A stretch of DNA of 52,382 nt from positions 1 through 52,382 of IMG/VR virus record IMGVR_UViG_3300020403_000015. One strand, given 5' to 3'. Below the pieces are notes generated by a model that had not been told where the DNA came from, made no database searches, and saw nothing but the letters and a program-made list of their open reading frames with translations. The position numbers were made by a program, and so were the translations under genes. This DNA is from a virus. Lineage: Duplodnaviria; Caudoviricetes. Position 1 is the first letter of the stretch. The number at the start of each line of letters is the position of its first letter. Of the stretch, positions 12,063-43,817 are shown piece after piece.

Positions 12063-12069
12063 GATTAAT

Positions 12070-18000: not shown

Positions 18001-20058
18001 AAGAACAAACTGATAGGCACGGCAGACTACGTTCCTTTTTACCGCATCATCGAAGAAGAGCAATACACAGAGGGGCTGTTCGGTCAGTTGCGTCAGGGCA
18101 ATGACTTTGCACAGAACCAAACTTCTGCATTCGACAACCCTGACAGGTTGGTTAGTAACGTCATTCGCAAACTAAAGGGCGGCGAAGAAAAGATTGGTGA
18201 CCTGTACGAAAATATCTTTGGCAACACACAAGCTATCATATCTGCTGGACTTAGAAACGTAGCCACTAGACGAACCGTTGATGTTGTCGAATCCCTAAAG
18301 AACGAAACAGACTTCTACAAGGGCGTGGACAGTCCAAAGAAAATTAATAAAGACGAAGCAAAGAACAACGACAATCACTTCACCTATCGTGAGAATGGTG
18401 TCACCAAGTTTTACGATGTCGGGGCTGACGGTGAGTTAATCACAGCAATGCGTACCTTCACACCGCCTCAGTTAGCTGGCTTCCTCAAGACGCTTGGTGC
18501 TGTAGGTCGGTTCTTCCGAAACGCAATCACGATAACTCCATCCTTTATGATAGCCAACCTTATCCGTGGTGATATGGCTGGTGTGGTGTCCGTTGACGCA
18601 CCTTTGGTTCCTTTTGTGGACACTATACGCGGTCTGAAAAATGCACTGACAGACTCTGAAACTGTCCAAGAAATGAAAACGATTGGTGGCTTTGGCGGCT
18701 ACACATTTGGTGACAACAACGCCGACTTTGCTAAGAAGATGAAGCGTCATCAACGGCGGCATGACGGTTACGATATCATCGACACACCCCAGCGTATGGG
18801 CGACATGATTGCCACCTTCTTTGAAAAGGTGAACAACGTTGGTGAAGCAACGGAGATGGCTACGAGAGAGGCCATCTTTAGGAAGATGACCGAAGCTGGT
18901 TCAAGTAAGTCAGACGCTGCCTACGAGGCCCTAAACCTCATTAACTACTCAAGGAGAGGCAACCCACAGGGTGCTTTGGCTCAGACATTCTCCATGCTAA
19001 TACCTCTTGTTCCATTCTTGAATGCAAGGGTTCAAGGTTTGTACCGAACTGGCACTGCGTTTAGTACTGAGGCAACTCCAAGGAATACCATAAAGAAAGG
19101 TCTTGGCCTGATGGGGTTATCCCTTGGGCTGTATGCCATCTCAAGCAGTCAAGATGACTGGGACAAAGAGCCACTCCACCGAAAGCTGAATTACTATATC
19201 ATTTACGCTGGTGATAAGAAGTTCCTCATTCCAAAGCCGTTTGAAATAGGCGCGGTCTTCAGCACCATTCCTGAACTGTTCTTTGATTATATAAAGAAAC
19301 GTGATGGTGAAGAGGTTAAGGATGCTGTGCTTCAGATATTCCTGAACAACTTCAGCTTTAACCCCATTCCTCAGGCAGTCAAGCCGTTGGTCGAGGTAGC
19401 ATCGAACTATGATTTCTTTAGAGGTCGGGCGATTGAAAGCCTTGGTGTCAGGGGCTTGCCGACAGAGATGCGTTCCTACTCAACAACAAGCGAGACAGCA
19501 AAACAGATTGGAAGGGTGAGCAGCGCACTGGGTATCTCTCCTATCGAAGCTGAGACTTTAATCAACGGATACGCTGGTAGCCTTGGTTCCTACTTCTTAG
19601 CTGGCGTTGACTCTATCCTTGGCTGGTCAGGGGCTGTTCCACAGAAGCCATCCGGGGTGTTTGGTGACGATATCTCTGGACATGCAGCGGCTGCGCTTGG
19701 TCTGAACCGCTTTGTTAAGGACCGCCCTGCTGACCCCGCATCAAAGTATATGTCTGATTTCTACGAGATGAAGCGTGAAGCTGACGAAGTTGTGCGAGGC
19801 ATCAATCGCTTGAGAGAGGAAGGTGACTACGAAGCTGCGCTTGAGATGAGGAAAGACAACCGCGCACTCATCTCTATCAAGAAGACGCTGAACAAACGTT
19901 ACGTCAAACTCAATCAAATTAACGACCAAATCCAAGGAGTGAAGTCTTCAGGATTAGAGCCTGAAGCAAAACAGAAAAAACTCAACCAACTAATTATTCA
20001 GCGCAACCGTATCGTGTCAGATATGGCGAAGCTGAAGAAGAGAATAAGAGATGTTTAA
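12070..20058 (+). CDS. Giant internal virion / polyvalent protein with C-terminal LPD38-like domain
   Basis: 2662 aa from ATG 12070. HEAFH zincin motif; C-terminal NYSRRG..PFLNARVQG..IPKPFEIG..P.VE...NYDFFRGRAI pattern of LPD38. Confidence 0.7.
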   Translation: MANTVRMPDGKLYDVTGHSQEDIEAARQNLFAQMGYGPQQKEDPGILDAFGRGLSRGIDQTSALVGDALPAIVADSLGYDDYRDEQLKEYTESMERMEKESPSYVPTYKDVDSVGDAALYASETVGMFIPSILTSIAGGGVGGFVGKKVAERFASKMAGDYAKKLATAQTVGRTAGFFTGSGVQTIPEAYTSIAEGTGEPRAGAAFMIGSINAALDSLLPAAIASKLSGRARKDVARSIFARMMKAGGKGAFVEGLTEGTQEANQLAAIDYINNNPDLLRGENLERVLEAGIRGSVGGGAISSVTGMPRGRPTPETDPELVDAAQAYAEGRPAPTEQLTGPDAVQQIGFDPTVQNQETREATVPIVERGERTERTVTDSDGRTQTIVDTPSVGEVGSSARVLTGDQQPFFETLDPETAPTTDARQNAVFVQNASRYAIDNNLDVDEFLGSPEGQTFMDEQAQAADVQDVNLTPTKVGQEERDAVKLNTPQLLEWGEQNKANDPQIANIMGSGVNNNVKAQALRQYLTRKNVTPATAEQASQTGDPILRPRPKTAEEGTVESTDEAFQPRMSRRKDTEQGAQLREEVGPVVNSALLEALRLRGGEASVRMNESGEIDEAATTKANTKYEGAVRYLNMRLNNLSKQGAQGKRVADSIRTQVMDNQSMGAKEIVGAFLAGDAVVDVLGGEGISGGVGLMFHKTLKGNGKHSLEGLKEYVNNGNQAVINLAFYEDDPRRVAQTASHEAFHILQDFYSEYSPSDSKLLESVYKMKDGKVNFKALPGTIKRLWKEYDPQLHRMALDGTLPEAMSSPAEFQAKTFELYKKAQQAGESNPLTGSYGRFFDFVGRFLPRLRNYMRGFGYQTAEDVFTRAASGKTAQQIKGKKVSSRDTQSGTEQSIAVDREPTPRDVYSQLEKLANKEGSEQSLRMAAEKHRDAMQVTTNEPSQIRVEGFVADTNPVITKNTVFDFETQDRKGRAVMAMDHLLGSKKHTRQLDTILRLHDANEDDGESRSAEFNETVARWNEAKQDGDKDMQFNLALDASHIFRKLGDDGIEVYQDRKNNVNVVSFKFPEDAEYGTQEHFSIAMVGHRGEEDFTSPFLDDYELTTFRLDEQIHDLFNNELVGKRTATSDKKITVIANSNSDYDSAFNKESVWNIDFSVDGQYTTQRDTPPKQTIEIFGKVLAGIRKVLDAIDDNNYAFGGIGFTAAGGVEGSPAYKKQAVYNKIARDPKIRAMFPELDAAQNVENLGQFETMAGFMPAKPDAGKEASLRLDRVPDLTQSQPSPANNDIVNQLVLSPRERALSALDILYNPDFKDELPQKDTEEGRDGRKRAKGRSIAEVGYGLQNKALAILGGQKITESNPETDQMLARVIASEVMAALKNNPEASAADWYTSSVERAIDAVAQLYPEVATDPEHRSAFAAALAITSQKIVVDRNSQLGLATYEFWRENGRFPLFGEGDAAGPMQNNFRLANEVQAAFGDDFTNFLSRQYSRKELEQALTDAGIKVGTGGVNLAGEGVNEMVYGSFIFGPKIGQGFYQNLMGNFDPVTIDLWFMRTWGRMTGTLVGKPEAAAKNIDKLKVMMSEEGIEFDSNLFGTDEQYTFDIVTRLKRDGEKHYKAETDRLKEQGLEKEDRIPKSPSQKESSNYITNMMKTIEQPRGPSQRSWIRSVVKQANDVLRQNGINITNADLQAIIWYPEKNLYSLLQSGKPNAEKLNQSYDTTFGELINGPTGIRSVDRGSGFDAVRESVRKADKKPSKKSKGNVGQEESIRFSTADYRTTDGMRSVLGDPTAKTLSGRVYNFLQRFTTKEGRANEGRKFINEFVHGLAPLARRELALSEKRTGDRRYLPFAQSAFKVTELAQQIPGRMQMMYEFGAPKLNPDGSMGIVETTQGLKKIFEPIGQGEKYGQFQMYVYAKRAERLKQEGRENLMTDAQIAEGLGYGAANPEFDRVFQEYRKFNEALMQFLVDTGSINTETKNKLIGTADYVPFYRIIEEEQYTEGLFGQLRQGNDFAQNQTSAFDNPDRLVSNVIRKLKGGEEKIGDLYENIFGNTQAIISAGLRNVATRRTVDVVESLKNETDFYKGVDSPKKINKDEAKNNDNHFTYRENGVTKFYDVGADGELITAMRTFTPPQLAGFLKTLGAVGRFFRNAITITPSFMIANLIRGDMAGVVSVDAPLVPFVDTIRGLKNALTDSETVQEMKTIGGFGGYTFGDNNADFAKKMKRHQRRHDGYDIIDTPQRMGDMIATFFEKVNNVGEATEMATREAIFRKMTEAGSSKSDAAYEALNLINYSRRGNPQGALAQTFSMLIPLVPFLNARVQGLYRTGTAFSTEATPRNTIKKGLGLMGLSLGLYAISSSQDDWDKEPLHRKLNYYIIYAGDKKFLIPKPFEIGAVFSTIPELFFDYIKKRDGEEVKDAVLQIFLNNFSFNPIPQAVKPLVEVASNYDFFRGRAIESLGVRGLPTEMRSYSTTSETAKQIGRVSSALGISPIEAETLINGYAGSLGSYFLAGVDSILGWSGAVPQKPSGVFGDDISGHAAAALGLNRFVKDRPADPASKYMSDFYEMKREADEVVRGINRLREEGDYEAALEMRKDNRALISIKKTLNKRYVKLNQINDQIQGVKSSGLEPEAKQKKLNQLIIQRNRIVSDMAKLKKRIRDV

Positions 20059-22369: not shown

Positions 22370-22535
22370 TGGTGCAAGTCTGGTGCAACGCCTTGTAAGT
22401 TATTGTAATCATTTAAAAAATATGGCAGTCTCTCCGCCAGCATTTTTGAATGAATTCAAATGGTTACAAGTAAATTGCACCAGAGTTTGTGTCACAGTGT
22501 GTCACAGTGTGTCAAGCTGTTTCAGCTTTGCACCA
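22370..22535. other. Putative attP site (core GTCTCTCCGCCA, 22428-22439)
   Basis: Directly downstream of the integrase. Core resembles a tRNA-Ser 3' end; TGGTGCAA x2 and TTGCACCA x2 arm-like repeats; 10-bp tandem repeats at 22488-22514; IHF-like sites. Confidence 0.7.
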
Positions 22536-23577
22536 CAGAAAATTTAGGCACTTCGATAAGAGAAGAGCCAACCTCAGAACTCTTCTCCATGAACTTAGGG
22601 TCGAATTTTGCATAGTGTTTTTGTGTTATCTCTATGCTTGTGTGGGCTAGATACTTACTCACCTCGTAAATTTCCACACCGTTCTTCACCATGTGAACAG
22701 CACAGGTGTGGCGCATTATGTGAGGTGTGACATCGGCTGATAGCCCAGCCCTCTCAGCCGCTTTCATAAAGTCGGGATAGATTGAGATAAGCGGCTTACC
22801 ATTTTTCTCCACAAGATAACCAGACTTTGACCTGTTAATTGCATCAGCAAGATGCGGCCTAAGTTTTGCTGGCATCCGTATAACTGGGCGTGGCTTCTGG
22901 CGGCCTTTAATTGTTGGGTCACGGAAGTCTATGATATTATCGTCCATCCTTGTACGGTCTTTGTGCAGCCCTAGAATGGCTCCAGACCGCGCTGCCGTTG
23001 ACAGGGCTATGTTGAGCCACAAACTTAAGTGATAGCTGTCAGAGGACTCCAGAAGCGCAGCAATCTCCTCACGCGACAAGTATCTATCTCTCACGCCAGA
23101 GTTAACGTTCTCAAATTGAACAGGGTTCCAGTCAATCAACTCGACCTTGCGACAAAACATTAACGCAGCATGCAGTACGTTTAATTCGCGTGAAGCTGTT
23201 GAGCCTTTTACCTTACGATTTCGTATGTACTCCACCGACTTACGATTTGTAATCGTTGAGATTTCCAAATCACCCATGTATGTAAGAAGTTGCTTTACGA
23301 TAGAATTATGCCTTGCAAGATTTCTCCCCCAAGTTCCCCTCGCAATTAATTCATTCGTATATTCATTCAACACTTGACTTATCTTGGTATAAGGCCCTGT
23401 TTCTTCTGAGTTTAATCCTTTCAGGAAGTTATCATAGAATAGCCTAGCTTCTGTTTCATCTTTAGTCCCTGTTGAAATGCTTTGATATTTTGTTTTCCAC
23501 TGCCCTTCCCTAAAGATTCGTTCAGGCCAGAAGATTTCAAAGTTTCTCTGTCCCTTCCTTCGCAATATATATTCCAT
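22522..23577 (-). CDS. int: Tyrosine recombinase/integrase
   Basis: TAARSGAI (R), K, HIMRH (HxxR), LAH and YA catalytic residues. Confidence 0.92.
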   Translation of the reverse strand: MEYILRRKGQRNFEIFWPERIFREGQWKTKYQSISTGTKDETEARLFYDNFLKGLNSEETGPYTKISQVLNEYTNELIARGTWGRNLARHNSIVKQLLTYMGDLEISTITNRKSVEYIRNRKVKGSTASRELNVLHAALMFCRKVELIDWNPVQFENVNSGVRDRYLSREEIAALLESSDSYHLSLWLNIALSTAARSGAILGLHKDRTRMDDNIIDFRDPTIKGRQKPRPVIRMPAKLRPHLADAINRSKSGYLVEKNGKPLISIYPDFMKAAERAGLSADVTPHIMRHTCAVHMVKNGVEIYEVSKYLAHTSIEITQKHYAKFDPKFMEKSSEVGSSLIEVPKFSVVQS

Positions 23578-26609: not shown

Positions 26610-26649
26610 ACCGTATCAAAACGGTATGAGGTTGTCAACATATTTCAGA
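26610..26649 (-). promoter_or_regulatory. Sigma70-type promoter of the recombination operon with adjacent operator-like motif
   Basis: Minus strand reads TCTGAAATATG-TTGACA-17 nt-TACGGT, ending 5 nt before ATG 26604. Confidence 0.65.
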
Positions 26650-26659
26650 CTATGCTAAG

Positions 26660-27328
26660 TCAGAAATCCGCACCCTTCCAAGTCATCATGCCAATTACCT
26701 CGACCTTCTCTGGTGAAACCTTTACAGCGTCTTTACCAAGAACATCAGTTGAGACAGTTATATCTTCATCACCAAACCTTACTTCAGCCCAGCGGAAGTA
26801 CAAACGGTTGTTGTTCTTTATTAAATATACGCCCTTCTTACTGACAGTTTCCTGTGTAACTACTCCAGCGGTAACACCCTCACTATTTAATGCATCACAA
26901 TCTGTGTTGCTAACCCTTACATAAAAGAACTCTCTATCATCACCTTTAATATTCAAGGCTTGAAAGTCTTTATACATGCTTATGGTTGTCAGAAACCTGA
27001 GTTCTTCATCACCGTCTGAGGCAGAATAAATACGGGCCTCGACATAATCCCTGATGTTGACTGAGTCAGGTGCTTTATCTTTCTGTTTAGAAAGACCGAA
27101 CAGGTAGTTCAGGTTAATGTCTAGCTTTTGTCCTATCTCACGGATGAGCATGAGGTCTGGATGAACTGGGCCAGAGACAACGTGATTAAATGTACGAGCA
27201 TCCATGCCAACCAGTTTAGCGGCTTCGGTTTGCGTCATGTCTTTTGACGCTAACACAGTTTTGATACGCTCTCTAAATTCCGGGTAATCACGTTTAACTC
27301 TCGTGATTTTTTTATCTAAAGTCGCCAT
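26660..27328 (-). CDS. CI-like repressor (XRE HTH + degenerate S24-like C-terminal domain)
   Basis: MTQTEAAKLVGMDARTF...P....I..I...LDINLNYLFG; ends EVIG; divergent from the 27445 operon. Confidence 0.75.
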   Translation of the reverse strand: MATLDKKITRVKRDYPEFRERIKTVLASKDMTQTEAAKLVGMDARTFNHVVSGPVHPDLMLIREIGQKLDINLNYLFGLSKQKDKAPDSVNIRDYVEARIYSASDGDEELRFLTTISMYKDFQALNIKGDDREFFYVRVSNTDCDALNSEGVTAGVVTQETVSKKGVYLIKNNNRLYFRWAEVRFGDEDITVSTDVLGKDAVKVSPEKVEVIGMMTWKGADF

Positions 27329-29823: not shown

Positions 29824-29862
29824 AGATACTGTCATCTGAAATATGTTGACAGTATCTTTTTT
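29824..29862 (+). terminator. Terminator-like hairpin overlapping a promoter
   Basis: AGATACTGTCA / TGACAGTATCT inverted repeat plus T-run. The loop holds TCTGAAATATGT and the 3' arm holds TTGACA. Confidence 0.6.
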
Positions 29863-33528: not shown

Positions 33529-33912
33529 TCATGTTACTGTCTCCTCACGAAATATACCTATGCTTGTTTCAGCTAAATCACGGTCACCACGCCGATAGCA
33601 CAAATCGAGGACAAACTTTGTGCCAAAGCTGTTAAAATGTAGACGAGTGCAATCACCATAATCTGCGTCCTCAAGTTCTTCACGCTTATCAACGCCATAC
33701 CTACTCTCCTCTAGGGAAATACCTTTCGTTGCCTCTTGATATCCCAACTCATATGCGGTGCGTATTTCGTCTTCGATATTGTAAAGGTCTTCCTGAGACA
33801 GAATTACTTTTACATCTTCTTCACAATGAACTTGCATATCATCAACATAGTTAGGGTCACCCGTGGCCCACTCAACGATTTTTTTCACACGTTGTTTTGC
33901 ACTAAATACCAT
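33529..33912 (-). CDS. Hypothetical protein
   Basis: 127 aa with AAGGAG RBS. Confidence 0.6.
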   Translation of the reverse strand: MVFSAKQRVKKIVEWATGDPNYVDDMQVHCEEDVKVILSQEDLYNIEDEIRTAYELGYQEATKGISLEESRYGVDKREELEDADYGDCTRLHFNSFGTKFVLDLCYRRGDRDLAETSIGIFREETVT

Positions 33913-34031
33913 TACTCAATCTCCTTCTTACAATATGTGCGGTCAAACTTTTCTCTGTGAATGTGCCAAACACCTTTGTTGTCAATCCAGACTAGGTGTT
34001 TGATACGAACAGGGAATGAAACCCAATCCAT
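33912..34031 (-). CDS. Small hypothetical protein (39 aa)
   Basis: MDWVSFPVRIKHLVWIDNKGVWHIHREKFDRTYCKKEIE; TAATG coupling to the next gene. Confidence 0.4.
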   Translation of the reverse strand: MDWVSFPVRIKHLVWIDNKGVWHIHREKFDRTYCKKEIE

Positions 34032-34053
34032 CCCCTTCTTTTTTCTTAAGCAT

Positions 34054-34311
34054 TCAGGACAAGTGGCTGAGTTCATCATTCACTCCATCCTCTGCCATGC
34101 ATACGGCTTGAGTGCTTATCTTTAACTCACGACAATCATCATAAAGACACTGGAGTTTCTGCCCCATATCCTTGAGCATAATCTTCTTGGCTTCTTTGAT
34201 AATCGCGTCAGCCTCTGTGCCTTTGAGGTGGTCAGTGTTCTTTACAATGAACCTCGCCAGCCACACTGTGCTTTGAATAGTCCGTAGTTGTTCATCAATC
34301 ATCTTCGTCAT
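34054..34311 (-). CDS. Hypothetical protein
   Basis: 85-aa ORF in the operon. Confidence 0.55.
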   Translation of the reverse strand: MTKMIDEQLRTIQSTVWLARFIVKNTDHLKGTEADAIIKEAKKIMLKDMGQKLQCLYDDCRELKISTQAVCMAEDGVNDELSHLS

Positions 34312-34708
34312 CTTTCTCTTTTATGAAGCAGAATTTCTTTTTATTTTTTGACGGTGGTTTTAATTTGATACAGGCCGAACACTTCCACGATGTGCTGGTT
34401 GTTGCGTCCAGGAATTCCGATTGAGTAGTCAGTGGCTCTTTGCACACGCAGCAGCGGGGCAAGTCGTCCGATAGAACTATCTCACCAGTCTGAATATCCT
34501 GAAGGATTACCTTGGTAACCTCACTCAGCTTCATCATAGCACCACCACCACAACGCTGGTTTGTGGGGAAGTGTTCTTGACCCATGTCTTTAAGTTTCGT
34601 TTTTACTGGGGGCAGTGTCTCTAAGTGACCCTGTCTAGGAACCCTAGCGGCTCCTACTTTTCGTTCTTTGTAGCCATCATCAATGTAGTCGCAGTTGTAT
34701 CTCGACAT
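34295..34708 (-). CDS. Hypothetical protein with CxxC...CxxC zinc finger
   Basis: CCVC...CSAC; AGGAG RBS. Confidence 0.5.
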   Translation of the reverse strand: MSRYNCDYIDDGYKERKVGAARVPRQGHLETLPPVKTKLKDMGQEHFPTNQRCGGGAMMKLSEVTKVILQDIQTGEIVLSDDLPRCCVCKEPLTTQSEFLDATTSTSWKCSACIKLKPPSKNKKKFCFIKEKDDEDD

Positions 34709-34802
34709 TACATTCTCCTACTGACAAGAGGGGTTAAATATTTAAGCGCAGGGGGCGCATTACAAAGCTGCACCAAAGTAAGCGTCCCCTTTTGCACCGC
34801 AC

Positions 34803-35078
34803 TCAATGCACTTGTTCACGTTTCCTTGCGCGGTACTTTTGTTTGTAAATCCTGTCGTACTCACGATACCTGACACGATTTTGTAGCCGCCACCTTCGCA
34901 CGGCAGGACGGGACTTGAGATATTTTCGGTGTTGGTTTCGGTACTCTCCAAAGAGGATGAGTAGTTTAACTGTGTCCGATAATAACTCTGCATTCATGTT
35001 ATCCTTTATTAAATCCCAACTAAATTTACCGTGCTTAAGTTTCCAAGCAGCCCTTGCTTTGAGATATTTTTTCTTCAT
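34803..35078 (-). CDS. Basic hypothetical protein
   Basis: K/R-rich, 91 aa; ATGA overlap with Sir2. Confidence 0.55.
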   Translation of the reverse strand: MKKKYLKARAAWKLKHGKFSWDLIKDNMNAELLSDTVKLLILFGEYRNQHRKYLKSRPAVRRWRLQNRVRYREYDRIYKQKYRARKREQVH

Positions 35079-35734
35079 GCCCGTTGCCTCTTCTTGTAGA
35101 GTTCATCAAAGCGTTTGTGTAAGATTGGAAGACCAACAGTCGCTGGCATATTCAAGACCTCATCAAACGCTGGATGACCTGTTGGTTCAGGGTTTAGCTC
35201 TATGCAATGAGTGCCTTTATGCCTCGCCTTAAAGACCATCGAACTATCACCACTGATTGACAGTGAAGAGCCAACAACAATTAAGACATCAGCCTCATCC
35301 AGAAGTTTGTCAGTCTGCTCTTCATGCATCTTCTCTTCTCCAAACAGCACGACATCAGGGATAACAACACCTTCTCGAATGCTACGGGTACGGCTCATGC
35401 AGCCGTGAATTTTGAAAAGGTTTTTAGAGCCAGCCTTTTCATGTAGGTCATCAACGTTGGTTGTGATTAAACCAAAGCCACCCTTACGCTTCGCGACACA
35501 ACGTTCAAACTTACGAATAAGTTTGTGTGCTATAGTCGGTTGGAAGTTTGCTGCTTTATATTCAGCAGTCACCTTGTCCCAAAAGTCGGTGAACTGCTTT
35601 TGGTCTATCAACCAGCCGCCAGTCTGAGCAACGATGGCTGGATTGTGTTCGGCCCATAGAGCCTTGCTTGCACGAAATGTGGGGATGCCACTCTCTGCGC
35701 TGATACCCGCGCCAGTATAGAAAACAATATTCAT
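35075..35734 (-). CDS. Sir2/CobB-family NAD-dependent deacylase lacking the Zn module
   Basis: TGAGISAESGIPTFR, TTNVDDLHEKAG, IHG, PDVVLFGE, VGSS, LNP. Confidence 0.9.
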   Translation of the reverse strand: MNIVFYTGAGISAESGIPTFRASKALWAEHNPAIVAQTGGWLIDQKQFTDFWDKVTAEYKAANFQPTIAHKLIRKFERCVAKRKGGFGLITTNVDDLHEKAGSKNLFKIHGCMSRTRSIREGVVIPDVVLFGEEKMHEEQTDKLLDEADVLIVVGSSLSISGDSSMVFKARHKGTHCIELNPEPTGHPAFDEVLNMPATVGLPILHKRFDELYKKRQRA

Positions 35735-35862
35735 ATCTGATTTCCTTCCTTCACTGGTGGGGCATTGGAAGGGTTGCTCCAGCTAGAGACAACCAAGCCA
35801 ACAAACGTTCCCCAGATTATAAAAATGGAGTAAACGCCAGTCGCGTTGTACTTAAAAAACAT
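35731..35862 (-). CDS. Small membrane peptide (43 aa, not in ORF track)
   Basis: MFFKYNATGVYSIFIIWGTFVGLVVSSWSNPSNAPPVKEGNQI; AAGGAGAAAGGA RBS; ATGA overlap with the Sir2 start. Confidence 0.5.
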   Translation of the reverse strand: MFFKYNATGVYSIFIIWGTFVGLVVSSWSNPSNAPPVKEGNQI

Positions 35863-36049
35863 TGTCCTTTCTCCTTACTAAAAGTTATTAAGACTTAGTT
35901 GCGTTTATAGAGTTACACAGATTAGGCATATTTAATACCTATATTTTTCTGTCTTATCTCTTTTATAAGACCCCCTTCCTTTCTTTTGTTTCACAACCCG
36001 CCCACGATAGAGAGGGGTGCGTAGTATTTTGGCTATCTTATTTTTAATA

Positions 36050-36286
36050 TTAAAAGGTCGTTTCATTTTTCAACCTCGCCAAGTCAGATTTAAAATTGGA
36101 CAAACTCTTTTTACATGACGGTGTGTTTGAAGTTGAAACCTTGAACACCGACTGACCCGTCACCCTACCCCCGCCATAGCTAGGGGTAGATAGTGTTAGT
36201 TTGATATGCTTGCCAACGTCCACACTGACCACGTTAAAGCCAGCTTGCTTGGCTAGTTTCTTTACATCCCTCAGGTGCTTTCTCAT
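36050..36286 (-). CDS. Hypothetical protein (HicA-like fold possible)
   Basis: LAKQAGF.V....GKHIKL...S.TPS pattern. Confidence 0.5.
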   Translation of the reverse strand: MRKHLRDVKKLAKQAGFNVVSVDVGKHIKLTLSTPSYGGGRVTGQSVFKVSTSNTPSCKKSLSNFKSDLARLKNETTF

Positions 36287-37170
36287 TCCAAGGCTCCCAA
36301 CAAATCAGAGGTAAACTCAGCACTAGCTTTGCGCTTGGCAACAGACTTGATATGCATGCGGCTCTTACATAACTTGAGCGAACCCATGTACTTTGCGATG
36401 TAACCTTCTTGCTCTGACCAGTCATTGGCTTTCAAACCCTTGCTGTAGTATTCAACTTGGAAACCTTCGACATCACCGAACATGCCAATCGGCTCAACCG
36501 ACTTGATGATTTTGTTCTCAATGGTGACATGTTGTTGAGCCTTGCTTGACTTGAATGACCTATCCTCGTCATCATCTGTCCTGAGTAGATTGATTTGCTC
36601 TGCCCAGTTCATCGGAACTGGAAGCAAGACTTCATGTGTTTGATAGCCAGTGTCATACTTTTTACAAACCTTACCCTCTTCGTTCAGGTATATTATGCAG
36701 TGCAAGTTAGCCCTGCCATTGGGCTTGTCGCCGTCCCACTCAGCTTTAAATTCACAACTGTAAAACGCTGGCCTCAACCACGGGGATTTTCTCAATCTAT
36801 CTGCCAACCACACTGCTTGTTCGCTATATCTATCCACCGCCGCTGCAAGACCAGTTGGCGTTTTCTCTTTGAACGCAGCCCTTTGTCGGGTCAGCGTATC
36901 CTTGCTCCGCATATAGTCATTTTCAAAATTAAACCCAGTTAGCCCACCCCTATCTAGGTTCATTGCTTGCCTTACCGCATGGGCGTTATTGGATTTTGAG
37001 ATTCTTTTTAGCTTGGTCTTGGACACACCCATAGCCCTGAATATTTCTTGCAAGTCTTTCATTCTGGCTTTGGCTGCAAGGTAATCCAGTTGTGCTTCAT
37101 TACGGACGGTTACCTTTACACCCGTAAATTTTTGTATGTGCTTCAATACATGTGACATATTTTTCTCCAC
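36283..37170 (-). CDS. Hypothetical protein
   Basis: 295-aa ORF, no motif recognised. Confidence 0.65.
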   Translation of the reverse strand: MEKNMSHVLKHIQKFTGVKVTVRNEAQLDYLAAKARMKDLQEIFRAMGVSKTKLKRISKSNNAHAVRQAMNLDRGGLTGFNFENDYMRSKDTLTRQRAAFKEKTPTGLAAAVDRYSEQAVWLADRLRKSPWLRPAFYSCEFKAEWDGDKPNGRANLHCIIYLNEEGKVCKKYDTGYQTHEVLLPVPMNWAEQINLLRTDDDEDRSFKSSKAQQHVTIENKIIKSVEPIGMFGDVEGFQVEYYSKGLKANDWSEQEGYIAKYMGSLKLCKSRMHIKSVAKRKASAEFTSDLLGALE

Positions 37171-37213
37171 TACTGACTGTTAAATATTGATTCCTGACTG
37201 CAATAACTCGCAG

Positions 37214-38503
37214 CTAAAACTTGATAGACATAACCTCACCGAACAGATGACCTTGCCTTTCTGAAGTGACACCCCAGTACACTGGATAGTCTGGCTCTTC
37301 AGGACAGGCTGAATATCCATCCGTTAGGTAGACCAAGGCCATTGGCTTGATGCCCATCTCATCAACCCAATCAAACACGGGCTGAAAATCTGTGCCGCCG
37401 CCAATCTTCACATCAATATCTAGATGTTCGCCCTGTTCAAAAGTCCGTGCGTCCGTTATCCTTGTGCTGCACTGAAGGATATGGACACGGGTTGGTCGTA
37501 ACTCTTCACAGATAGACCTGAACTCAGCGACAAACTGCTGCACCTCATCGGGGCTGCAACTGGCTGACGTATCAAAGGCCAAGACCAGTTCGCCTGTATC
37601 CTCACGGTGAAAGTCAGGCATGAATATGTCATCACTTTCTAACAAGTGGCCCATGTTCTTGTGTGAGCGTTGATATGTGTAGTCAACAACAGACACACCC
37701 TGCATCGTCTCGCGAATAACAGTCTTCCAATCCACGCTTGGTTTCTTGTATTCCTCAAGCAATGTCTGACCCGCACTGGTCTCAAGGCCACGGGCTTTTG
37801 CCATAGTGTGTGCCTGTTCAACCATCACTTCGACTTCGCGTTCTGCTTCAGCCGCTTCCTCTGGGGTTGTGATATCGGCGTTGTCTACCCTGCCCCAGTC
37901 CTGCGGCTTCAGACCATCATCCATTGACTGGTCACCGGGAGATTGAGCATCGCCTTCCTGCTGCTGCTCGCCACCTTTGCCACCTTTGCCATCATCATTA
38001 TCATCACCATCACTAGGCTGCTGCGGTGTTTTGGTTCTTCTGGGGTTAACGTCAGGCTGCTTTTGTTCTTTGAGAAGTGACTTGTAGATATCATCACTGC
38101 TCATGCCCCTGTACTTTTCGTCAAGCAATGCACCTTCGGGCAACTCCATACACGATACACCCCTGCGTTTGATTTCTGCATTGATTGCATCCTGAATTTG
38201 AAGATTAATCCAGTAGTCGGTCGCGATGTTGTGCAGTTCAGGGTCAAGGCCAATACCTCTGATATGATGCTTGCCGTACACATGCATCACCTCATGCACA
38301 ACCAAACCGACTTTTTGCTTCGATGGAAGGGACATTAAGAAGTCAGGGTTAAACTTGATTGACGTTCCATTGGTTGCTGCGGTGTTCATCTTCTCATCAG
38401 AAACCCAGAGTAGCTTGCTTGCACCAGCCCCAAAGAAGGGCTGATGCGCTAGTGTTTTCATCTTAATCTTTGAGATTTCATCCTGTAATTTGTTCATGTT
38501 CAA
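37214..38503 (-). CDS. DUF2201-type metallopeptidase + VWA domain protein
   Basis: TAATNG, HEVMH (HExxH), NIATD..IN, acidic linker, DTSAS MIDAS, GGGTDF.PVF, YLTDGY. Confidence 0.85.
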   Translation of the reverse strand: MNMNKLQDEISKIKMKTLAHQPFFGAGASKLLWVSDEKMNTAATNGTSIKFNPDFLMSLPSKQKVGLVVHEVMHVYGKHHIRGIGLDPELHNIATDYWINLQIQDAINAEIKRRGVSCMELPEGALLDEKYRGMSSDDIYKSLLKEQKQPDVNPRRTKTPQQPSDGDDNDDGKGGKGGEQQQEGDAQSPGDQSMDDGLKPQDWGRVDNADITTPEEAAEAEREVEVMVEQAHTMAKARGLETSAGQTLLEEYKKPSVDWKTVIRETMQGVSVVDYTYQRSHKNMGHLLESDDIFMPDFHREDTGELVLAFDTSASCSPDEVQQFVAEFRSICEELRPTRVHILQCSTRITDARTFEQGEHLDIDVKIGGGTDFQPVFDWVDEMGIKPMALVYLTDGYSACPEEPDYPVYWGVTSERQGHLFGEVMSIKF

Positions 38504-38508
38504 TCTCC

Positions 38509-39543
38509 TTACGAGCGCACAATATTTGCGAGTTCACAATTCAGTTCGATATACTTTTGATTTTTGCATAGCTTCTGGTCACGAGCCGCAATATCAGTCA
38601 GACAAATCAACTGGTATTCACGGTTCATCCTACGCATGAACTTGATTACGTTGTCCATGTTCGCAGCCGTTGCCATCCGCGCAACAGAACCAGTCATGGC
38701 GAACTTTACACACACATCTTCGGGAATCTCGACACTGTCGGGGTCTTTCTCAATCTGCGTGAGGTCAGGAAGTGACCGCCACATTTTGAGGAATGCCATA
38801 TACTCAATGGCAAACCCATGACCACAACAGCCCTCAACCAGTGAGAATTCTAAATCCTGACTCGCACCCTTGATAAGGTTATCCATCATCACGATTGAAC
38901 GTGGCGTTGGAAATGCCGTCATATCTGGCTCAAAGTCGTGCAGTTGGTCTTGCTTGAAGCGCACAAAGGCAACGGTTTGAGGTGACACGCCAGCAGGAAT
39001 TGCCCAACTCGCAAAGTCTGCGACTGACGGTTCAAGCTGCACATGGACAAAGCGGTTACGCAACGGGGCTGGCATTGTATTGGTAACGCCACGGTCCGAC
39101 ACGCGATTGCCAGCAGCCATGATGCGGCAACCCTTGGGCAGTTCATAATCACCCAAGCGTTTATCCAATACCAATTGATAGGACATTGCCTGAATAATAG
39201 GTGATGGCTGGTTGATTTCATCCAAAAGAACAAGGATTTTTGCGTCTGGGTCAGTGGGCAGTCGCCCATCTCTAGCCCATTGAACCTTAACAACAGTACC
39301 ATCTTCAAGTCTGACTGGTACAGGCACACCTTTTAAATCTGACGGGTCAGTGACAGACAACCTCACATCTATGCACCCGTCAAACCCCAGAGCCTCTGCT
39401 AATTGGTGTATCATATCCGATTTACCCGCGCCTGACTTACCCCAAGTCATCAGGGGCAAATCTGCTTGGATACATTGCTTTGCATAGTCGAACCATTTTG
39501 AAGGGCTGACCGTTGCGATATTCATTTCTGTAGATTTTTGCAT
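38509..39543 (-). CDS. MoxR-like AAA+ ATPase
   Basis: Walker A GKSGAGKS, Walker B LLLDE-like (VLLDEI), AAGNR, PLRNRF, PTPRS. Confidence 0.88.
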   Translation of the reverse strand: MQKSTEMNIATVSPSKWFDYAKQCIQADLPLMTWGKSGAGKSDMIHQLAEALGFDGCIDVRLSVTDPSDLKGVPVPVRLEDGTVVKVQWARDGRLPTDPDAKILVLLDEINQPSPIIQAMSYQLVLDKRLGDYELPKGCRIMAAGNRVSDRGVTNTMPAPLRNRFVHVQLEPSVADFASWAIPAGVSPQTVAFVRFKQDQLHDFEPDMTAFPTPRSIVMMDNLIKGASQDLEFSLVEGCCGHGFAIEYMAFLKMWRSLPDLTQIEKDPDSVEIPEDVCVKFAMTGSVARMATAANMDNVIKFMRRMNREYQLICLTDIAARDQKLCKNQKYIELNCELANIVRS

Positions 39544-39572
39544 AATAATCTCGCTTTCATACTGACGTTTTT

Positions 39573-39613
39573 AATATGGGTATTATAACTGACGATGTCA
39601 AACATATTTCTGA
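39573..39613 (-). promoter_or_regulatory. Promoter of AAA/VWA genes with operator-like motif
   Basis: Minus strand reads TCAGAAATATGT-TTGACA-17 nt-CATATT. Confidence 0.55.
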
Positions 39614-39619
39614 CTGACA

Positions 39620-39847
39620 CTAGTCACATTTTTTTGCAGGGATAAAAGTTGACAATCTCCTTCCATTTTTAAGGTGAGCTTTTTTTGCCAGCTTTACTGC
39701 TTCATCAACCACTGACTTGTCAGTGTTTTGATTGTCGTGTATTCGCTGCACAATTTTGAATGTTTCCCACGGCAGCGGTGTCACCTGTTCACGGCAACAC
39801 ACTGCGTTATGGGCTTTCCAGTTTTGCATTCGTTCTACTGCTTTCAT
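39620..39847 (-). CDS. Hypothetical protein
   Basis: 75 aa; ATGA overlap with the upstream gene. Confidence 0.55.
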   Translation of the reverse strand: MKAVERMQNWKAHNAVCCREQVTPLPWETFKIVQRIHDNQNTDKSVVDEAVKLAKKAHLKNGRRLSTFIPAKKCD

Positions 39848-40734
39848 GCTGCTACTCCATATCCAGCCATAGCATCCAAGATGCCTTGGGCTTCATTCGC
39901 TGCTGATTTCCGCGCAACTTCATTTTCTCGTAAATCACCAGCATCTAAGACTGCGAGTTTTTGTTTCACCAACTCGCAATAATTATTTAAGTCTGCGTCA
40001 CCAGTCAGGTTAAGACGGGGCAAGACCTGACAAAGGTCGCGGATATTTTCAACTAGGCTATCCTTGAAACCATCTACAACCTTGCTTTCACCTTTGACTG
40101 CGGGTTTATAGTTGACCATCTTATGATGGAACAACTCAACACGGCTAATCAGGCGTTCCCATAAATCGTGCATTGCCCCGTCAATACGAGACTGCATCTG
40201 GGTTTCTGCGTTTTCGATTAACTGTTGCTCAAGTTCCTCAGAGCCAAACATCTTGTCGAACATATTATTATCAGCCAATGGCTCATAATTTATAGTCATG
40301 CTGAATTTCTCGCGTACAGCCTCAACACTTGGATAATCATCAGCGTTGAACATCTCACCCAGACGGCCTTGCTGGCGGTCACGGTGTCGCTCGTATTTTT
40401 TCAGGAAGTCTTCAACCAGCCCGTCAAAAATATCTTTGAGGTTGCCGATTTTCTCTTTGTGAAAGTCGAACATGGTAACGGGCATCAAGTCCTGACCTTT
40501 TGCGTATGGCAAGGTCAATTCTTTATTCAGGTTTCTAGCCTTGCCAGCAACCTTTTTGATTTCCTTTAGCATCTCGTTATCGGCAAACAAGGACTTAACA
40601 TATTTGCCAGCCTTGCTGCTTGCGTTCTTGTTGTTCGCAACTTCATCAGACACTGAGCGGTCAATCTTTTCACCACCCCACTGTGAGATTTCAAGGCGAA
40701 CAATAACTGCGGATTTTTGAATATTTGTAGCCAT
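39844..40734 (-). CDS. DUF3150-like protein
   Basis: L.ISQW.G.K.D, F...Y, DYPS.E.VR.KF, LNLTGD..L; typical neighbour of AAA/DUF2201 genes. Confidence 0.6.
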   Translation of the reverse strand: MATNIQKSAVIVRLEISQWGGEKIDRSVSDEVANNKNASSKAGKYVKSLFADNEMLKEIKKVAGKARNLNKELTLPYAKGQDLMPVTMFDFHKEKIGNLKDIFDGLVEDFLKKYERHRDRQQGRLGEMFNADDYPSVEAVREKFSMTINYEPLADNNMFDKMFGSEELEQQLIENAETQMQSRIDGAMHDLWERLISRVELFHHKMVNYKPAVKGESKVVDGFKDSLVENIRDLCQVLPRLNLTGDADLNNYCELVKQKLAVLDAGDLRENEVARKSAANEAQGILDAMAGYGVAA

Positions 40735-40765
40735 GTGATTATTTCCTCTTCCAGATAAATATTGA

Positions 40766-41005
40766 CTAGTTAATCTCTGTTTCTGACTTAGTCAAGGCGT
40801 GACGATGCTCACCCTCGTTAAGAGGGAACCGCGAGAGGATATCTTCAAGATGCCCCGCGCAACTGATACCAGCAAAAATTGCTGTTATCATTCCCAGTAT
40901 CCAAAGGTCAGTCAGTCCCTCACTGAACAGCACCACCGCCATTGTTCCAGCGAATGCTGCCAGCGCACCATCTTTAATCATCCAAATAATAGGTCTATTT
41001 GTCAT
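40766..41005 (-). CDS. Small two-TM membrane protein
   Basis: Two hydrophobic segments. Confidence 0.55.
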   Translation of the reverse strand: MTNRPIIWMIKDGALAAFAGTMAVVLFSEGLTDLWILGMITAIFAGISCAGHLEDILSRFPLNEGEHRHALTKSETEIN

Positions 41006-41405
41006 TTTTTCTTTCCACTTCTATCAAGCCTTTGATGTATTTTGTTGTTTTTTGGATTGAACAGGCAATCTGGAACCATTCGATATCGCGGCCCCCACCC
41101 TCTCTACGTCGGACACTTTCACCTTGCTCATAGGCGATATCGTAAAGCTCGTTTAACTTTTGCAGAAAATCTGATTTATCCACGCCAAAATTTGTCGTCC
41201 AAGGCGTTACCGTTTCTGCCATTTTTACCGCTTCCTCATAGGTGTTATGGCTGGAATGATGATGCTTACCTTTGGCTGTTCGGGGTTCGATGTATAACGT
41301 CCAGCAGCCAATGGACTTGTTTATCACAACATATTCTTGACTATTTACCCCAACCCACGTTGCGCGGGTTTCAGGCATTAATTCAAATTTTGCAACTTGT
41401 GACAT
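40995..41405 (-). CDS. Hypothetical protein
   Basis: 136 aa; AAAGGAGG RBS. Confidence 0.6.
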   Translation of the reverse strand: MSQVAKFELMPETRATWVGVNSQEYVVINKSIGCWTLYIEPRTAKGKHHHSSHNTYEEAVKMAETVTPWTTNFGVDKSDFLQKLNELYDIAYEQGESVRRREGGGRDIEWFQIACSIQKTTKYIKGLIEVERKNDK

Positions 41406-41423
41406 GGGCCGTGGCCCTCCTTT

Positions 41424-41663
41424 CTAAAGATGTGAAAAGCTGATTATTTGCTTACCCTTGGGGGTTTGCTCATAAACTATATTAACCAGCCGCCCTTCCC
41501 AGTTTGTGCAAACTTCATAAGCACAAGCTGCGTTAGACTTTGTTTTGAAAACTCCGAATGCTGTATGCAATGCCCAGCGTGGGTTGCCGACACTTGAATT
41601 GTTGAGGCGTTCCACTTTTCGGATGTTGATTTGGTCTTTTATGGGGTTTGTTTTTTTATTCAT
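41424..41663 (-). CDS. Hypothetical protein, first ORF of the early operon
   Basis: RL..S..GNPRW motif; AAAAGGA RBS. Confidence 0.6.
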   Translation of the reverse strand: MNKKTNPIKDQINIRKVERLNNSSVGNPRWALHTAFGVFKTKSNAACAYEVCTNWEGRLVNIVYEQTPKGKQIISFSHL

Positions 41664-41679
41664 GGTTTGGAAAGTTCCT

Positions 41680-42545
41680 TTTCAGTTCCAATGCGGTGAG
41701 GTGTTCACCGTGTCAGGGCTTGGCAAGGGAGATAACCAAGCCCTCACAAGGTGACAGGACCGAAGCCCTGCCGCCTGAAACTGTGTTTTCATCATTGACC
41801 GCCCTGCATTCCTGCACTGGCATGTCATGTTGGCTAGTCAATGGCTGATGTTTACGGCAACCCGTGTCACTTTTTCCACGGGTGCGGCAAACTTGATGCA
41901 ATGTGGCGGTCAGCACCGCCAGCCGCCGAAGCGACAACCTGTCATGGTCAGTGGCAAGGGGTCCGAAGACAATTTTAATTCCAACCGTGCAACCTCTTAT
42001 TACACGGTCAACGTTGCAGCCCTGCTTTGGGGGTCTCGACTGCATAACATCCTATCTGCGGGGTGTGGTGGCCCTGCCCAGTCTGGGGGTCTCAATCAGT
42101 ATTGGAAAGCGTCCTTTGTGGGGAATGGTTACCCTGCCAAGTTGGGGGTCTGTGAAGGGTTGCTGTTAGGACGGTTTGTTGAATTCCTACACCTAACAGC
42201 AGCCGGACAATTGACCAGTTCCAACGGGTCTAACGAACACCTGATGATGCACCAGTTCCAGTGGGTCTAATGTGCAGCAGCGCGATTGACCAATTCCAAG
42301 GGGTCTAGCGCAACGTTGCTTGCGTTTAGCGTTTGTAGTCTTATGAACGATGGGAAAAAGCGAACCGAAGCCAGCGTCCTGCCGCCTATGCGGAGTATCG
42401 GGGGGCGGGAATTGAACTGCCAGTGCAGCCATTAGGCCAGCCCTTGTCCGACTGCCAACATTGCAGCGGGGCGTGGGGTCACCGTGTGAGCGGTGTCGGT
42501 ATGAACTTTGTCAAACAGCGCGGCCCAAAAATGCTAGGGGGCCAA
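41680..42545 (-). ncRNA. Candidate large structured RNA / leader of the early operon
   Basis: No credible CDS; GC-richer than flanks; many hairpins; four C(UUCG)G loops on the minus strand; six repeated AGACCC modules. Confidence 0.55.
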
Positions 42546-42718
42546 TGACGCAACTTGGGCGTCAAGTCAGAAATATGTACTGACAAAGCCTATTTCAAGG
42601 GGTGCTAGTCAAAAAAGTTTCCTGACAAAGAAAGCCCCAAACGGGGCGGGGAAATAACCGCATTGGGGATAAGGGATAAGGTACACTGTAAGGGGATAAG
42701 ACAAAGGGACTAGAAACA

Positions 42719-43204
42719 ATGGCAAGTAAGAAGCACACGACAGCCCACGGGTTGACTGTTAAGCAGGAAGCATTCGCTCAGGCATATGTCACGGGGGATA
42801 GCAAAGGCAATGCATCAGCGGCATACAGGGCGGCCTACGACTGCGAAAAGATGAAACCCAGTAGCGTAAGGGCCGAAGCATGCCGATTGCTGGATAACCT
42901 GAACGTAACCCAGCGCATTGACCAGTTAAACGCTGATATAACGGCTCAACACCGCTTGCAGGGGGTCTCGCTGCGTCAACGAGTGCAGGAAGGACTGTTA
43001 TTGGAAGCAACCGCCGCTGAAAGCCCAGCAGCGCGGGTCAGGGCATGGGAATTGATAGGCAAGCTGCAAGGTGTGGACGCATTCGGTGCTGACCGTGTCG
43101 AGACCAACACCACAATAAACAGCAAAACGGCGGAAAGTGAGCTACAACAAGCAATAGCAGCCGCACTTGAAGATAGTACCGTGGTGCAACTGTTCGATAA
43201 GTAG
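42719..43204 (+). CDS. terS: Terminase small subunit
   Basis: LTVKQEAFAQAYV...NASAAYRAAY...A.RLL.N..V..RI..L; A.ELIGK..G. Confidence 0.88.
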   Translation: MASKKHTTAHGLTVKQEAFAQAYVTGDSKGNASAAYRAAYDCEKMKPSSVRAEACRLLDNLNVTQRIDQLNADITAQHRLQGVSLRQRVQEGLLLEATAAESPAARVRAWELIGKLQGVDAFGADRVETNTTINSKTAESELQQAIAAALEDSTVVQLFDK

Positions 43205-43694
43205 CTGATATCGCTGGTTTCTGGTGGCGGAAATTAGGGGATTGCAAGGCTCACCCTCAAATCGGGGTGTACCTTGACAGATAGAGGGTGTCTTCCCTGC
43301 CTACCCCCACCCCCCTGTACGCACACTCACCCACACTCGCGTATACATAGTACTAAACACCCACAATCCCAGCTTTTTCCAACCAATCCCATACCCCTTT
43401 CCCCCAAAACACAGGAAAAAGGCCAAGGAATCCTACCCCCGGTGGGGATATTTAGTGAATTATAAAGGAAATTATGAAGGAAAGTGAGAACGCTACATAG
43501 CAAAAGAGCATAAAGGCGAAGATATTGCTGAACTTCATAACGATAAAACCTCTTTAAAAGGGGACCAGCCTGAATGCGCTACAAGCTGGTCCGAGTCTAG
43601 GGAGATTTAAAAGCAGCCGGGGAGAAGGAGTAAAACCCCCGACCACTCATTCGGTTATATCGTCAGGAATCTGTAGTGTCAACACCTACGTCAT

Positions 43695-43736
43695 ACATAT
43701 TTCAGAGTTGACAGTGCCAGTAATAGAACATAAGGT
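43695..43736 (+). promoter_or_regulatory. Sigma70-type promoter with operator-like motif
   Basis: ACATATTTCAGA-G-TTGACA-17 nt-TAAGGT. Confidence 0.6.
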
Positions 43737-43817
43737 GAATCTGCATGGTCAAGCATGCGCTGTGAGAACGGGGGTCTTCTTCTATCACCCTTCCACCCAG
43801 AAACGAGGAAGACCCCT

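Follow-up and report, generated by a model that had tools for sequence, protein, structure and literature searches.

A predicted ~870-nucleotide structured RNA at the head of the leftward operon of a marine phage contig

The gene-poor gap upstream of terS

The DNA examined is the IMG/VR virus record IMGVR_UViG_3300020403_000015, a linear stretch of 52,382 nucleotides (nt) with a completeness estimate of 83%, hereafter referred to as the window. Between positions 41664 and 42718 lies a gap of 1,055 nt, poor in open reading frames (ORFs), which separates two diverging genes. An original prediction made from the sequence alone had placed a large structured non-coding RNA (ncRNA) of no known family at 41680-42545, encoded on the minus strand and heading the operon that runs leftward, in what it described as the largest gene-free stretch. 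The gap is indeed the longest stretch without a conserved ORF in the window, as judged by ORF reading rather than by a gene caller. Its two flanking genes are as follows:

41424-41663, minus strand: first ORF of the leftward operon, 79 amino acids (aa), no family found in family searches
42719-43204, plus strand: terS, the diverging neighbour (PHROG 51 at 1.1e-18, PF03592 at 7.5e-9)

The element within this gap has a G+C content of 52-67%, compared with ~46% for the window. Its 866 nt hold 4 of the 27 CTTCGG motifs found on both strands of the window, where ~0.45 would be expected from the window-wide density. These four had been described correctly at the outset as minus-strand CUUCGG, with CCGAAG read on the plus strand at 41760, 41926, 41963 and 42365.

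Homologues upstream of terS, whose collection had been suggested with the prediction, were obtained using a protein-guided terS scan, which gave 13 close loci (L002-L014) with terS sequences 75-95% identical. All of these contain an ORF-poor gap of ~950-1070 nt before terS, the DNA of which aligns to the window at 69-85%. Two motif scans, using a motif from the most conserved stretch of the element, added L029, L038, L053, L056, L064, L065, L067, L068 and L070. The family as found comprises ~12 lineages with pairwise identities of 50-100%, all of them uncultured contigs with a common neighbourhood.

No conserved ORF is present in the element. The ORFs of at least 50 aa lie at different places, in different frames and on different strands, a comparison of the window with L002 being enough to show this, and 479 of the 546 indel runs counted pairwise among seven lineage representatives are not multiples of three. 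Translated similarity to L053 is 48-55% on both strands simultaneously, a pattern expected of DNA conservation alone. A conserved protein ORF, which had been named in advance as a finding that would speak against an RNA, was not found.

Conserved base pairing, architecture and strand

Base pairing in the element is conserved through compensatory changes, including those that hold long-range helices together. RNAalifold applied to a first alignment of 13 sequences gave 130 pairs, 52 of which have both sides changed. Alignment A2 was then made from 17 of 20 extracted sequences (L070, L067 and L014, near-identical to L002, L006 and L012, were left out), and selection of helices with at least 3 pairs and at least 88% standard pairs resulted in 92 curated pairs. 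In A2, 95.6% of cells are paired, compared with 84.6% after shuffling (0 of 500 shuffles reach the observed value) and 36-47% with slid partners. Cells changed on both sides number 172 and fall in 32 of the 92 pairs, against a shuffled mean of 55.6 and 7-32 with slid partners, and the covariation score is 0.342, against 0.143 and 0.046-0.087, respectively. Alignment A3 contains the 11 sequences that have the long central domain (10 distinct), with six short-version sequences left out, and has 119 pairs. Here 95.0% of cells are paired (83.8% shuffled, with 0 of 500 reaching the observed value; 35-49% slid), 125 cells in 42 of the 119 pairs are changed on both sides (shuffled mean 39.9; 14-21 slid) and the covariation score is 0.321 (0.130 shuffled; 0.045-0.075 slid). 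One measure, that of further pair types, did not rise above the shuffles, being reached by 170 of 500 and 44 of 500.

The closing helix of the central domain joins sites ~310 nt apart and has a different sequence in each of five lineages, with complementarity retained; 5 of its 9 pairs (A3 helix 2) are changed on both sides, as are 3 of the 5 pairs in A3 helix 7. A further pairing that would close the element from 5' to 3', between CUGUUU near 42510 and AAACAG near 41785, was dropped, as a matching change occurs in L053 only. Compensatory changes that keep a structure, together with the lack of a conserved ORF, are what is generally taken to mark a large structured ncRNA, and both are found here. 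The element is ~870 nt long and would run from roughly 42563 down to 41691, with the following parts in 5' to 3' order:

42547-42563 and 42522-42543, minus strand: two 5'-terminal hairpins, both in the minimum free energy (MFE) fold
42351-42520, minus strand: 5' domain (A2 helices 2-5, 94-100% paired, 5 pairs changed on both sides)
42336-42375, minus strand: weak UUCG-capped hairpin (42360-42375), then a U-rich linker that is strongly conserved (at the 3' end of alignment A4 its columns do not vary)
42008-42318, minus strand: central domain, a long rod with closing helix 42310-42318 with 42008-42017
within 42274-42310, 42236-42272 and 42199-42235, minus strand: central 5'-strand modules (consensus fold)
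42158-42204, minus strand: apical hairpin of the central domain, which covaries
around 42132-42155, 42073-42095 and 42019-42040, minus strand: central 3'-strand modules (consensus fold)
41984-42008, minus strand: hairpin between the central and 3' domains (A3 helix 21: 9 pairs, 8 changed on both sides, 100% paired)
41691-41979, minus strand: 3' domain of six hairpins (A2 helices 10-16, 92-100% paired)
41922-41935 (UUCG), 41904-41921, 41793-41843, 41750-41775 (UUCG), 41711-41748 and 41694-41710, minus strand: hairpins of the 3' domain

The 5'-terminal hairpin pair can be found in every lineage with unrelated sequences, several of them UUCG-capped. Within the 5' domain, the small hairpin at 42478-42497 has a loop that swaps among UUCG, UCCG and GCAA, and the long irregular hairpin at ~42363-42477 includes the most conserved stretch of the element. 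The segment at 42336-42375, which the terminator scan did not call, may work as an attenuator or terminator within the element, or may be recognized as a single strand. In L038, the 47-nt apical hairpin is replaced by a short UUCG hairpin. Three long stems had been put forward from the window sequence. Those at 41711-41748, where 8 of 13 pairs are changed on both sides, and at 42161-42201, which extends here to 42158-42204, are real and covary; that at 41860-41883 is an insertion, present in the window and in only some lineages. The stem at 41984-42008, also singled out from the window alone, proved to have changes on both sides in all but one of its pairs, as listed above.

Six direct repeats with the core GGGGTCT on the plus strand (AGACCCC on the RNA strand; families D1, D3 and D6) lie 400-700 bp upstream of terS. 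They are of two kinds, three 5' modules at 37-38-nt spacing and three 3' modules at 56-60-nt spacing, and in the consensus fold they pair in nested order, the first with the sixth, the second with the fifth and the third with the fourth. Each module pair forms one tier of three short helices split by small internal loops, in which the outer two helices almost never vary and the middle helix switches from U-A to C-G. The six repeats thus make up both strands of a helical unit that occurs three times, as stacked, near-identical tiers, and are not an array of protein sites in DNA. A shorter central domain with fewer tiers is seen in L003, L007, L009, L010, L064 and L029. Two of these are mosaics: in L064:371-1462 a short centre resembling that of L003 lies between 5' and 3' parts that resemble the window (90 and 83%, respectively), and in L029:489-1591 the same short centre has flanks like those of L038. 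The central domain has therefore been exchanged as a module by recombination.

The RNA strand is very probably the minus strand, as the original prediction had read it from the tetraloops. Among 12 lineage representatives, CTTCGG occurs 39 times on the minus strand and once on the plus strand. At the same 98 hairpin sites (4-bp Watson-Crick stems with 4-nt loops), UNCG or GNRA loops are seen at 31 on the minus strand and 5 on the plus strand. Folding gave the same direction: with 20 shuffles per strand, the whole element scores z = -3.43 on minus and -1.25 on plus, each of the 6 lineages folded has its lower MFE z-score on the minus strand, and the 3' domain at 41691-41979 has z-scores of -5.23 (0 of 200 shuffles as good) and -1.78 (8 of 200), respectively. 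Under a symmetric choice of helices by Watson-Crick content only, GU pairs outnumber AC mismatches 46:26 for the minus strand. The loop swaps of the hairpin at 42478-42497 and the UUCG replacement in L038 point to this strand as well.

Regulatory setting, distribution and interpretation

The start of the element lies directly behind a site that recurs in the genome, and this position is conserved in all lineages. The features on this side are:

42565-42588 and 42607-42630: two operator-like sites of the GTCA..N..TGAC type (direct-repeat family D4)
42570-42598, minus strand: tentative sigma-70-like promoter (-35 TTGAAA at 42598-42593, 17-nt spacer, -10 TATTTC at 42575-42570)

The first site contains the genome-wide motif ACATATTTCTGAC (42566-42578, minus strand), which stops three bases before the first hairpin of the RNA. 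The operator motif originally described here is real: ACATATTTNNGAC at up to one mismatch occurs 7 times in the window, where 0.96 would be expected, and 0 of 100 shuffles reach 7. It lies inside a longer TGTCA..TGAC site, the operator-like site being ~20 bp long and consisting of TGTCA, 0-2 nt and ACATATTTCWGAC. A looser GTCAG..TGAC pattern is not enriched in the window (19 found, 19.6 expected). Five copies of the motif are intergenic (26638-26650, 29834-29846, 39602-39614, 42566-42578 and 43695-43707) and occur in both orientations relative to genes. The motif is therefore read as a predicted binding site of a regulator protein and not as a promoter, such a role for the conserved ACATATTT..GAC motif being rejected because its copies face both ways. 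The copy at 26638 adjoins a repressor-like gene at 26660-27328, and that at 43695-43707 lies in a second gene-poor gap (43205-43754, ~550 nt) directly after terS.

From the tentative promoter, the transcript would start near 42562-42563. At the other end, the start codon at 41663 lies ~30 nt beyond the last hairpin, and a terminator scan returned no terminator-like site between that hairpin and the first ORF. The leftward operon must therefore be transcribed through the element, from which co-transcription is inferred. Between terS and the operator region, at 42634-42651, a hairpin rich in G+C precedes a T run and resembles a terminator of the minus strand; there is no upstream gene on that strand, and the hairpin is kept in all lineages with its stem letters changed. 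Three 151-nt contigs from two metatranscriptome runs of two studies, with a small word share each, fall inside the element (42354-42504, 41785-41934 and 41923-42073), with none in the flanks over 41000-43400, and offer a weak hint of expression. The operon behind the element (33529-41663, minus strand) begins with small variable ORFs, which are followed by four recognizable genes:

39844-40734, minus strand: DUF3150-like protein, 296 aa
38509-39543, minus strand: MoxR-type ATPase
37214-38503, minus strand: VWA/DUF2201 protein
35075-35734, minus strand: Sir2-family protein

A link between the RNA and the neighbouring 296-aa protein was considered and rejected, the protein being DUF3150-like with no hint of RNA binding. 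A PHROGs label of HNH endonuclease for the VWA protein was not borne out by Pfam. To the other side, terS is followed by terL, portal and virion genes; among the latter is one ORF of 2,679 aa (12019-20058), the C-terminal third of which resembles PHROGs of unknown function and the N-terminus, weakly, a virion structural protein. The phage is temperate by gene content, since it has an integrase (22522-23577) and the repressor-like gene. Among isolates, the nearest terL sequences are those of phage DSL-LC04 (57%) and of Pelagibacter phages HTVC027P and HTVC023P (53%).

The family looks confined, from the sequences searched, to one narrow group of marine phage contigs, because no copy was recovered from distant terS relatives, HTVC027P or DSL-LC04. 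Covariance models were built on the 5' domain (R1) and on the end of the 3' domain (R2), and at E values up to 1 these gave nothing in L015-L023, 19 chance loci, HTVC027P and DSL-LC04, bar weak R2 matches in L016 (18.6 bits) and L055 (15 bits). The former (L016:3285-3351, minus strand) is ~650 nt upstream of a distant terS (41% identical), with the relative place and strand of the element's 3' end, and may point to a remote relative or be a chance match. Ahead of terS in L015-L019, the shorter gaps have no clear folding signal and no CUUCGG, and a DNA similarity search of GenBank phages gave no match. The remaining pattern matches (19 viral and 7 metagenome extra loci) were set aside as chance, with no further similarity. 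Prophage copies were also sought as a clue to the host, and a two-block motif scan of genome contigs gave 10 matches in unrelated taxa, none of them further similar. In HTVC027P, a 548-nt gene-free gap between the diverging genes gp34 and gp35 (L082:3183-3730; 44% G+C in a 36% locus) folds with z-scores of -3.4 on one strand and -5.5 on the other (25 shuffles) and may be another structured RNA; it has no match to R1 or R2. Within the family, no homologue of the 79-aa first ORF was found in L002-L023 (one marginal 22-residue match), and beyond the element the clades cannot be aligned with one another. The element is thus retained as the gene directly downstream changes.

That a structured minus-strand RNA heads the leftward operon is very probable, and the central claim of the original prediction, a novel large structured ncRNA at this place, is upheld by covarying homologues, the lack of a conserved ORF, the tetraloops and folding z-scores that single out the minus strand, and the lack of an Rfam match. 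The best explanation overall, an ~870-nt RNA leader or ncRNA of a new family with the mechanism proposed here, is considered reasonably probable. Leftward transcription would begin on release of the regulator from the operator, with the RNA as the 5' part of the operon transcript, so that every such transcript would carry it as a giant 5' leader; a stable ncRNA may also be cut from this leader. The three tiers might serve as a multivalent docking platform for a protein of phage or host, probably a dimer. As soon as the operator became free, the RNA would titrate that protein or assemble it. The dense fold and terminal hairpins would shield ~870 untranslated nt from Rho and RNases, and the operon behind would, on this proposal, therefore be expressed. 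We infer the promoter, the RNA ends, the co-transcription, any partner and any effect on expression, and the docking function in particular is offered tentatively.

A number of points weigh against this explanation. The structures were derived from the same alignments that were used for pair counting, and with only ~12 lineages in 4-5 clades the cell counts overstate independent events. The tier helices are mostly invariant, which neither supports nor contradicts their pairing. Folding z-scores against shuffles, a check proposed with the original prediction, gave a signal for the whole element and for the 3' domain on the minus strand but none for the 5' part (42351-42563; z of -0.09 and +0.33 on the two strands), the support for which is therefore covariation only; in L038, even the whole element reaches a z of only -0.23. 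As to strand, a plain count over the pairs common to both predictions (45 GU and 60 AC on minus letters) picks neither, and several central helices, in which A-C outnumbers G-U on the minus strand, lean to the plus strand, as the original prediction had remarked of some wobbles. The TTGACG that it had proposed as a -35 box found no support, a promoter scan of 41300-42900 having returned 0 sigma-70-like sites. The candidate TTGAAA-17-TATTTC matches 8/12 and is co-located among the top three in only 6 of the 12 lineage representatives. The three metatranscriptome contigs carry no strand information and could derive from DNA carry-over, and the missing cover of the flanks is no evidence.

Other readings of what kind of element this is were weighed against the same data. 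The chance that protein-coding regions, small or overlapping, have been missed is negligible: the window does contain ORFs of 79-147 aa here on both strands, and the translated similarity to L053 might be taken as a sign of coding, but the position, frame and strand of these ORFs change from one relative to another, the great majority of indels break the frame and similarity on two strands at once is the pattern of DNA conservation. An element acting as double- or single-stranded DNA, through sites for terminase (pac or cos), a replication initiator (iterons) or a repressor, would account for six direct repeats so close to terS, for the real operator-like sites at the right edge and for the exchange of the central block as a module. 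It is nevertheless very improbable, because no protein site on duplex DNA requires compensatory changes to hold helices ~310 nt apart, and because the repeats pair mutually in nested order and RNA-type tetraloops occur on one strand only with their loops swapped; moreover, the contig does not end here and there is therefore no assembled cos end. The possibility of a plus-strand RNA, forming a giant leader in front of the late, structural terS operon, draws on pairing that is largely strand-symmetric, on similar consensus fold energies (-332.9 and -344.2), on the central helices that lean to plus and on terS being next on that strand. Both loop counts (39:1 and 31:5), the z-scores in all six lineages and in the 3' domain, and the GU:AC ratio under symmetric selection favour minus, and the promoter scan found no promoter-like site at the left end, which leaves a plus-strand RNA improbable.

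Among readings that accept a minus-strand RNA, a purely cis-acting leader, with no role in trans, would control the operon behind it by attenuation at 42336-42375, processive antitermination or anti-Rho action, mRNA stabilization or control of the first ribosome binding site. The missing terminator-like site at the 3' end, the ~30 nt to the first start codon, the conserved place behind the operator-like site and the UUCG hairpin with its invariant U-rich stretch after the 5' domain all fit such a leader. As a whole it is rather doubtful, given that ~870 nt, more than 200 conserved pairs and three tiers far exceed the needs of put, nut and EAR-type leaders, that the element persists across clades with different first downstream ORFs, and that the central domain has been swapped between lineages (L064 and L029). 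About equally doubtful is the idea that the element joins GOLLD and ROOL as the third class of giant, ornate phage RNA, related to neither, which would be released from the operator-controlled operon head at the lytic switch and act in trans on the host, its tiers forming a multivalent assembly of RNA only or with a captured host or phage protein. If this holds, an RNA of this kind would for the first time have a defined regulatory context (operator, promoter side and operon), and its function would become testable. A self-assembling particle of RNA only, formed in the manner of GOLLD and ROOL with tiers and conserved loops as contacts between RNA copies, is proposed by analogy and appears unlikely. 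The size, ornate fold and phage origin of the element resemble those of the cage-forming GOLLD (>800 nt) and ROOL (PMC12286853), and the invariant tier nucleotides are as expected of tertiary or quaternary contacts. Against it stand the lack of an Rfam match, GOLLD and ROOL included, a location away from tRNA genes and an informal inspection of the alignments, which found no loop that stays palindromic while varying, the kissing-loop signature used in PMC12286853.

Comparison with known RNAs

An Rfam scan, which had been suggested at the outset, gave 0 matches in Rfam 15 at gathering thresholds over the whole window. At E values up to 10 on 41500-42800, it gave two chance-level matches, to a small nucleolar RNA at 20 bits (40 needed) and to a microRNA at 16 (70 needed). 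HEARO is also represented in Rfam, and covariance-model matches to GOLLD, ROOL, OLE, HEARO or any other Rfam 15 family are thus lacking. Literature searches found no report of the element. On these sequence comparisons it is a predicted new family of large structured phage RNA, either a giant leader or an ncRNA.

Phage leader RNAs such as HK022 put, lambda nut, P4 CI RNA and the c4-type RNAs of P1 and N15 are tens to a few hundred nt long, with one or two hairpins or short antisense pairings. Like them, the element has a putative repressor-controlled promoter region on one side and an operon's first gene on the other, and it could act during transcription of its own operon; unlike them, it has ~870 nt and three domains, and no match was found at E values up to 10. 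RNA sponges of the CsrB/RsmZ type expose many GGA motifs in hairpin loops. A short GGA-containing motif is likewise repeated here in three successive modules of one RNA, but the GG of each GGA pairs with the CC of the partner module, with adjacent UA-to-CG covariation. The helices concerned, A3 helices 4 and 13, are 100% paired with one pair each changed on both sides, which is not the exposed arrangement of a sponge; the element also has three tiers rather than many loops and no Rfam match. Type III antitoxin RNAs (ToxI-like) consist of near-identical tandem repeats of ~34-45 nt next to a toxin endoribonuclease gene. Here, three units of 37-38 nt are 68-81% alike and pair with three other modules in a nested rod, and the neighbouring ORFs gave no match to a toxin family. 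Terminase recognition arrays (pac or cosB-type) need no long-range complementarity, whereas long-range helices are kept here by compensatory changes. Caution is warranted more generally, as direct repeats upstream of terS, which invite a reading as pac or iteron sites, can turn out to be the paired strands of one RNA helix.

Candidate structured RNAs have been catalogued from IMG/VR by Fremin, Bhatt and Kyrpides in 2023 (PMC10690425), with motifs of only 29-151 nt. The catalogue resembles the present work in its source and in its covariation evidence from intergenic regions of viral contigs, and it may contain single hairpins of the element.

The closest comparison in scale is with GOLLD and ROOL, of which ROOL has ~580 nt and GOLLD is as large as the present element. 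Few bacterial and phage RNAs are so large and so highly structured, and what they do is mostly unknown; each new class has been informative. Here, the covariation support is strong for so few sequences, and the internal triplication of a helical tier is unusual. According to PMC12286853, GOLLD and ROOL come from phages or prophages, have no known function, assemble into homo-oligomeric cages and are located near tRNA genes or tRNA islands, and OLE, GOLLD and ROOL, which have profiles in Rfam, turned out to form unexpected multimeric assemblies. As described there, they share with the element a very large, many-helix fold in phage RNA, discovery via covariation in metagenomic sequence and a variable part beside a conserved part (PMC12286853). 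The element differs from both in having no Rfam sequence or structure match, in a window where ARAGORN found 0 tRNA or transfer-messenger RNA genes over all 52,382 nt, in its three repeated tiers and lack of a terminator of its own, and in its occurrence so far in only one narrow group of contigs from marine phages. It also has, in contrast to GOLLD and ROOL, a readable regulatory setting, behind a recurring operator-like site and before a conserved DUF3150-MoxR-VWA-Sir2 operon, which provides direct handles for experiments and may show what giant phage RNAs are for.

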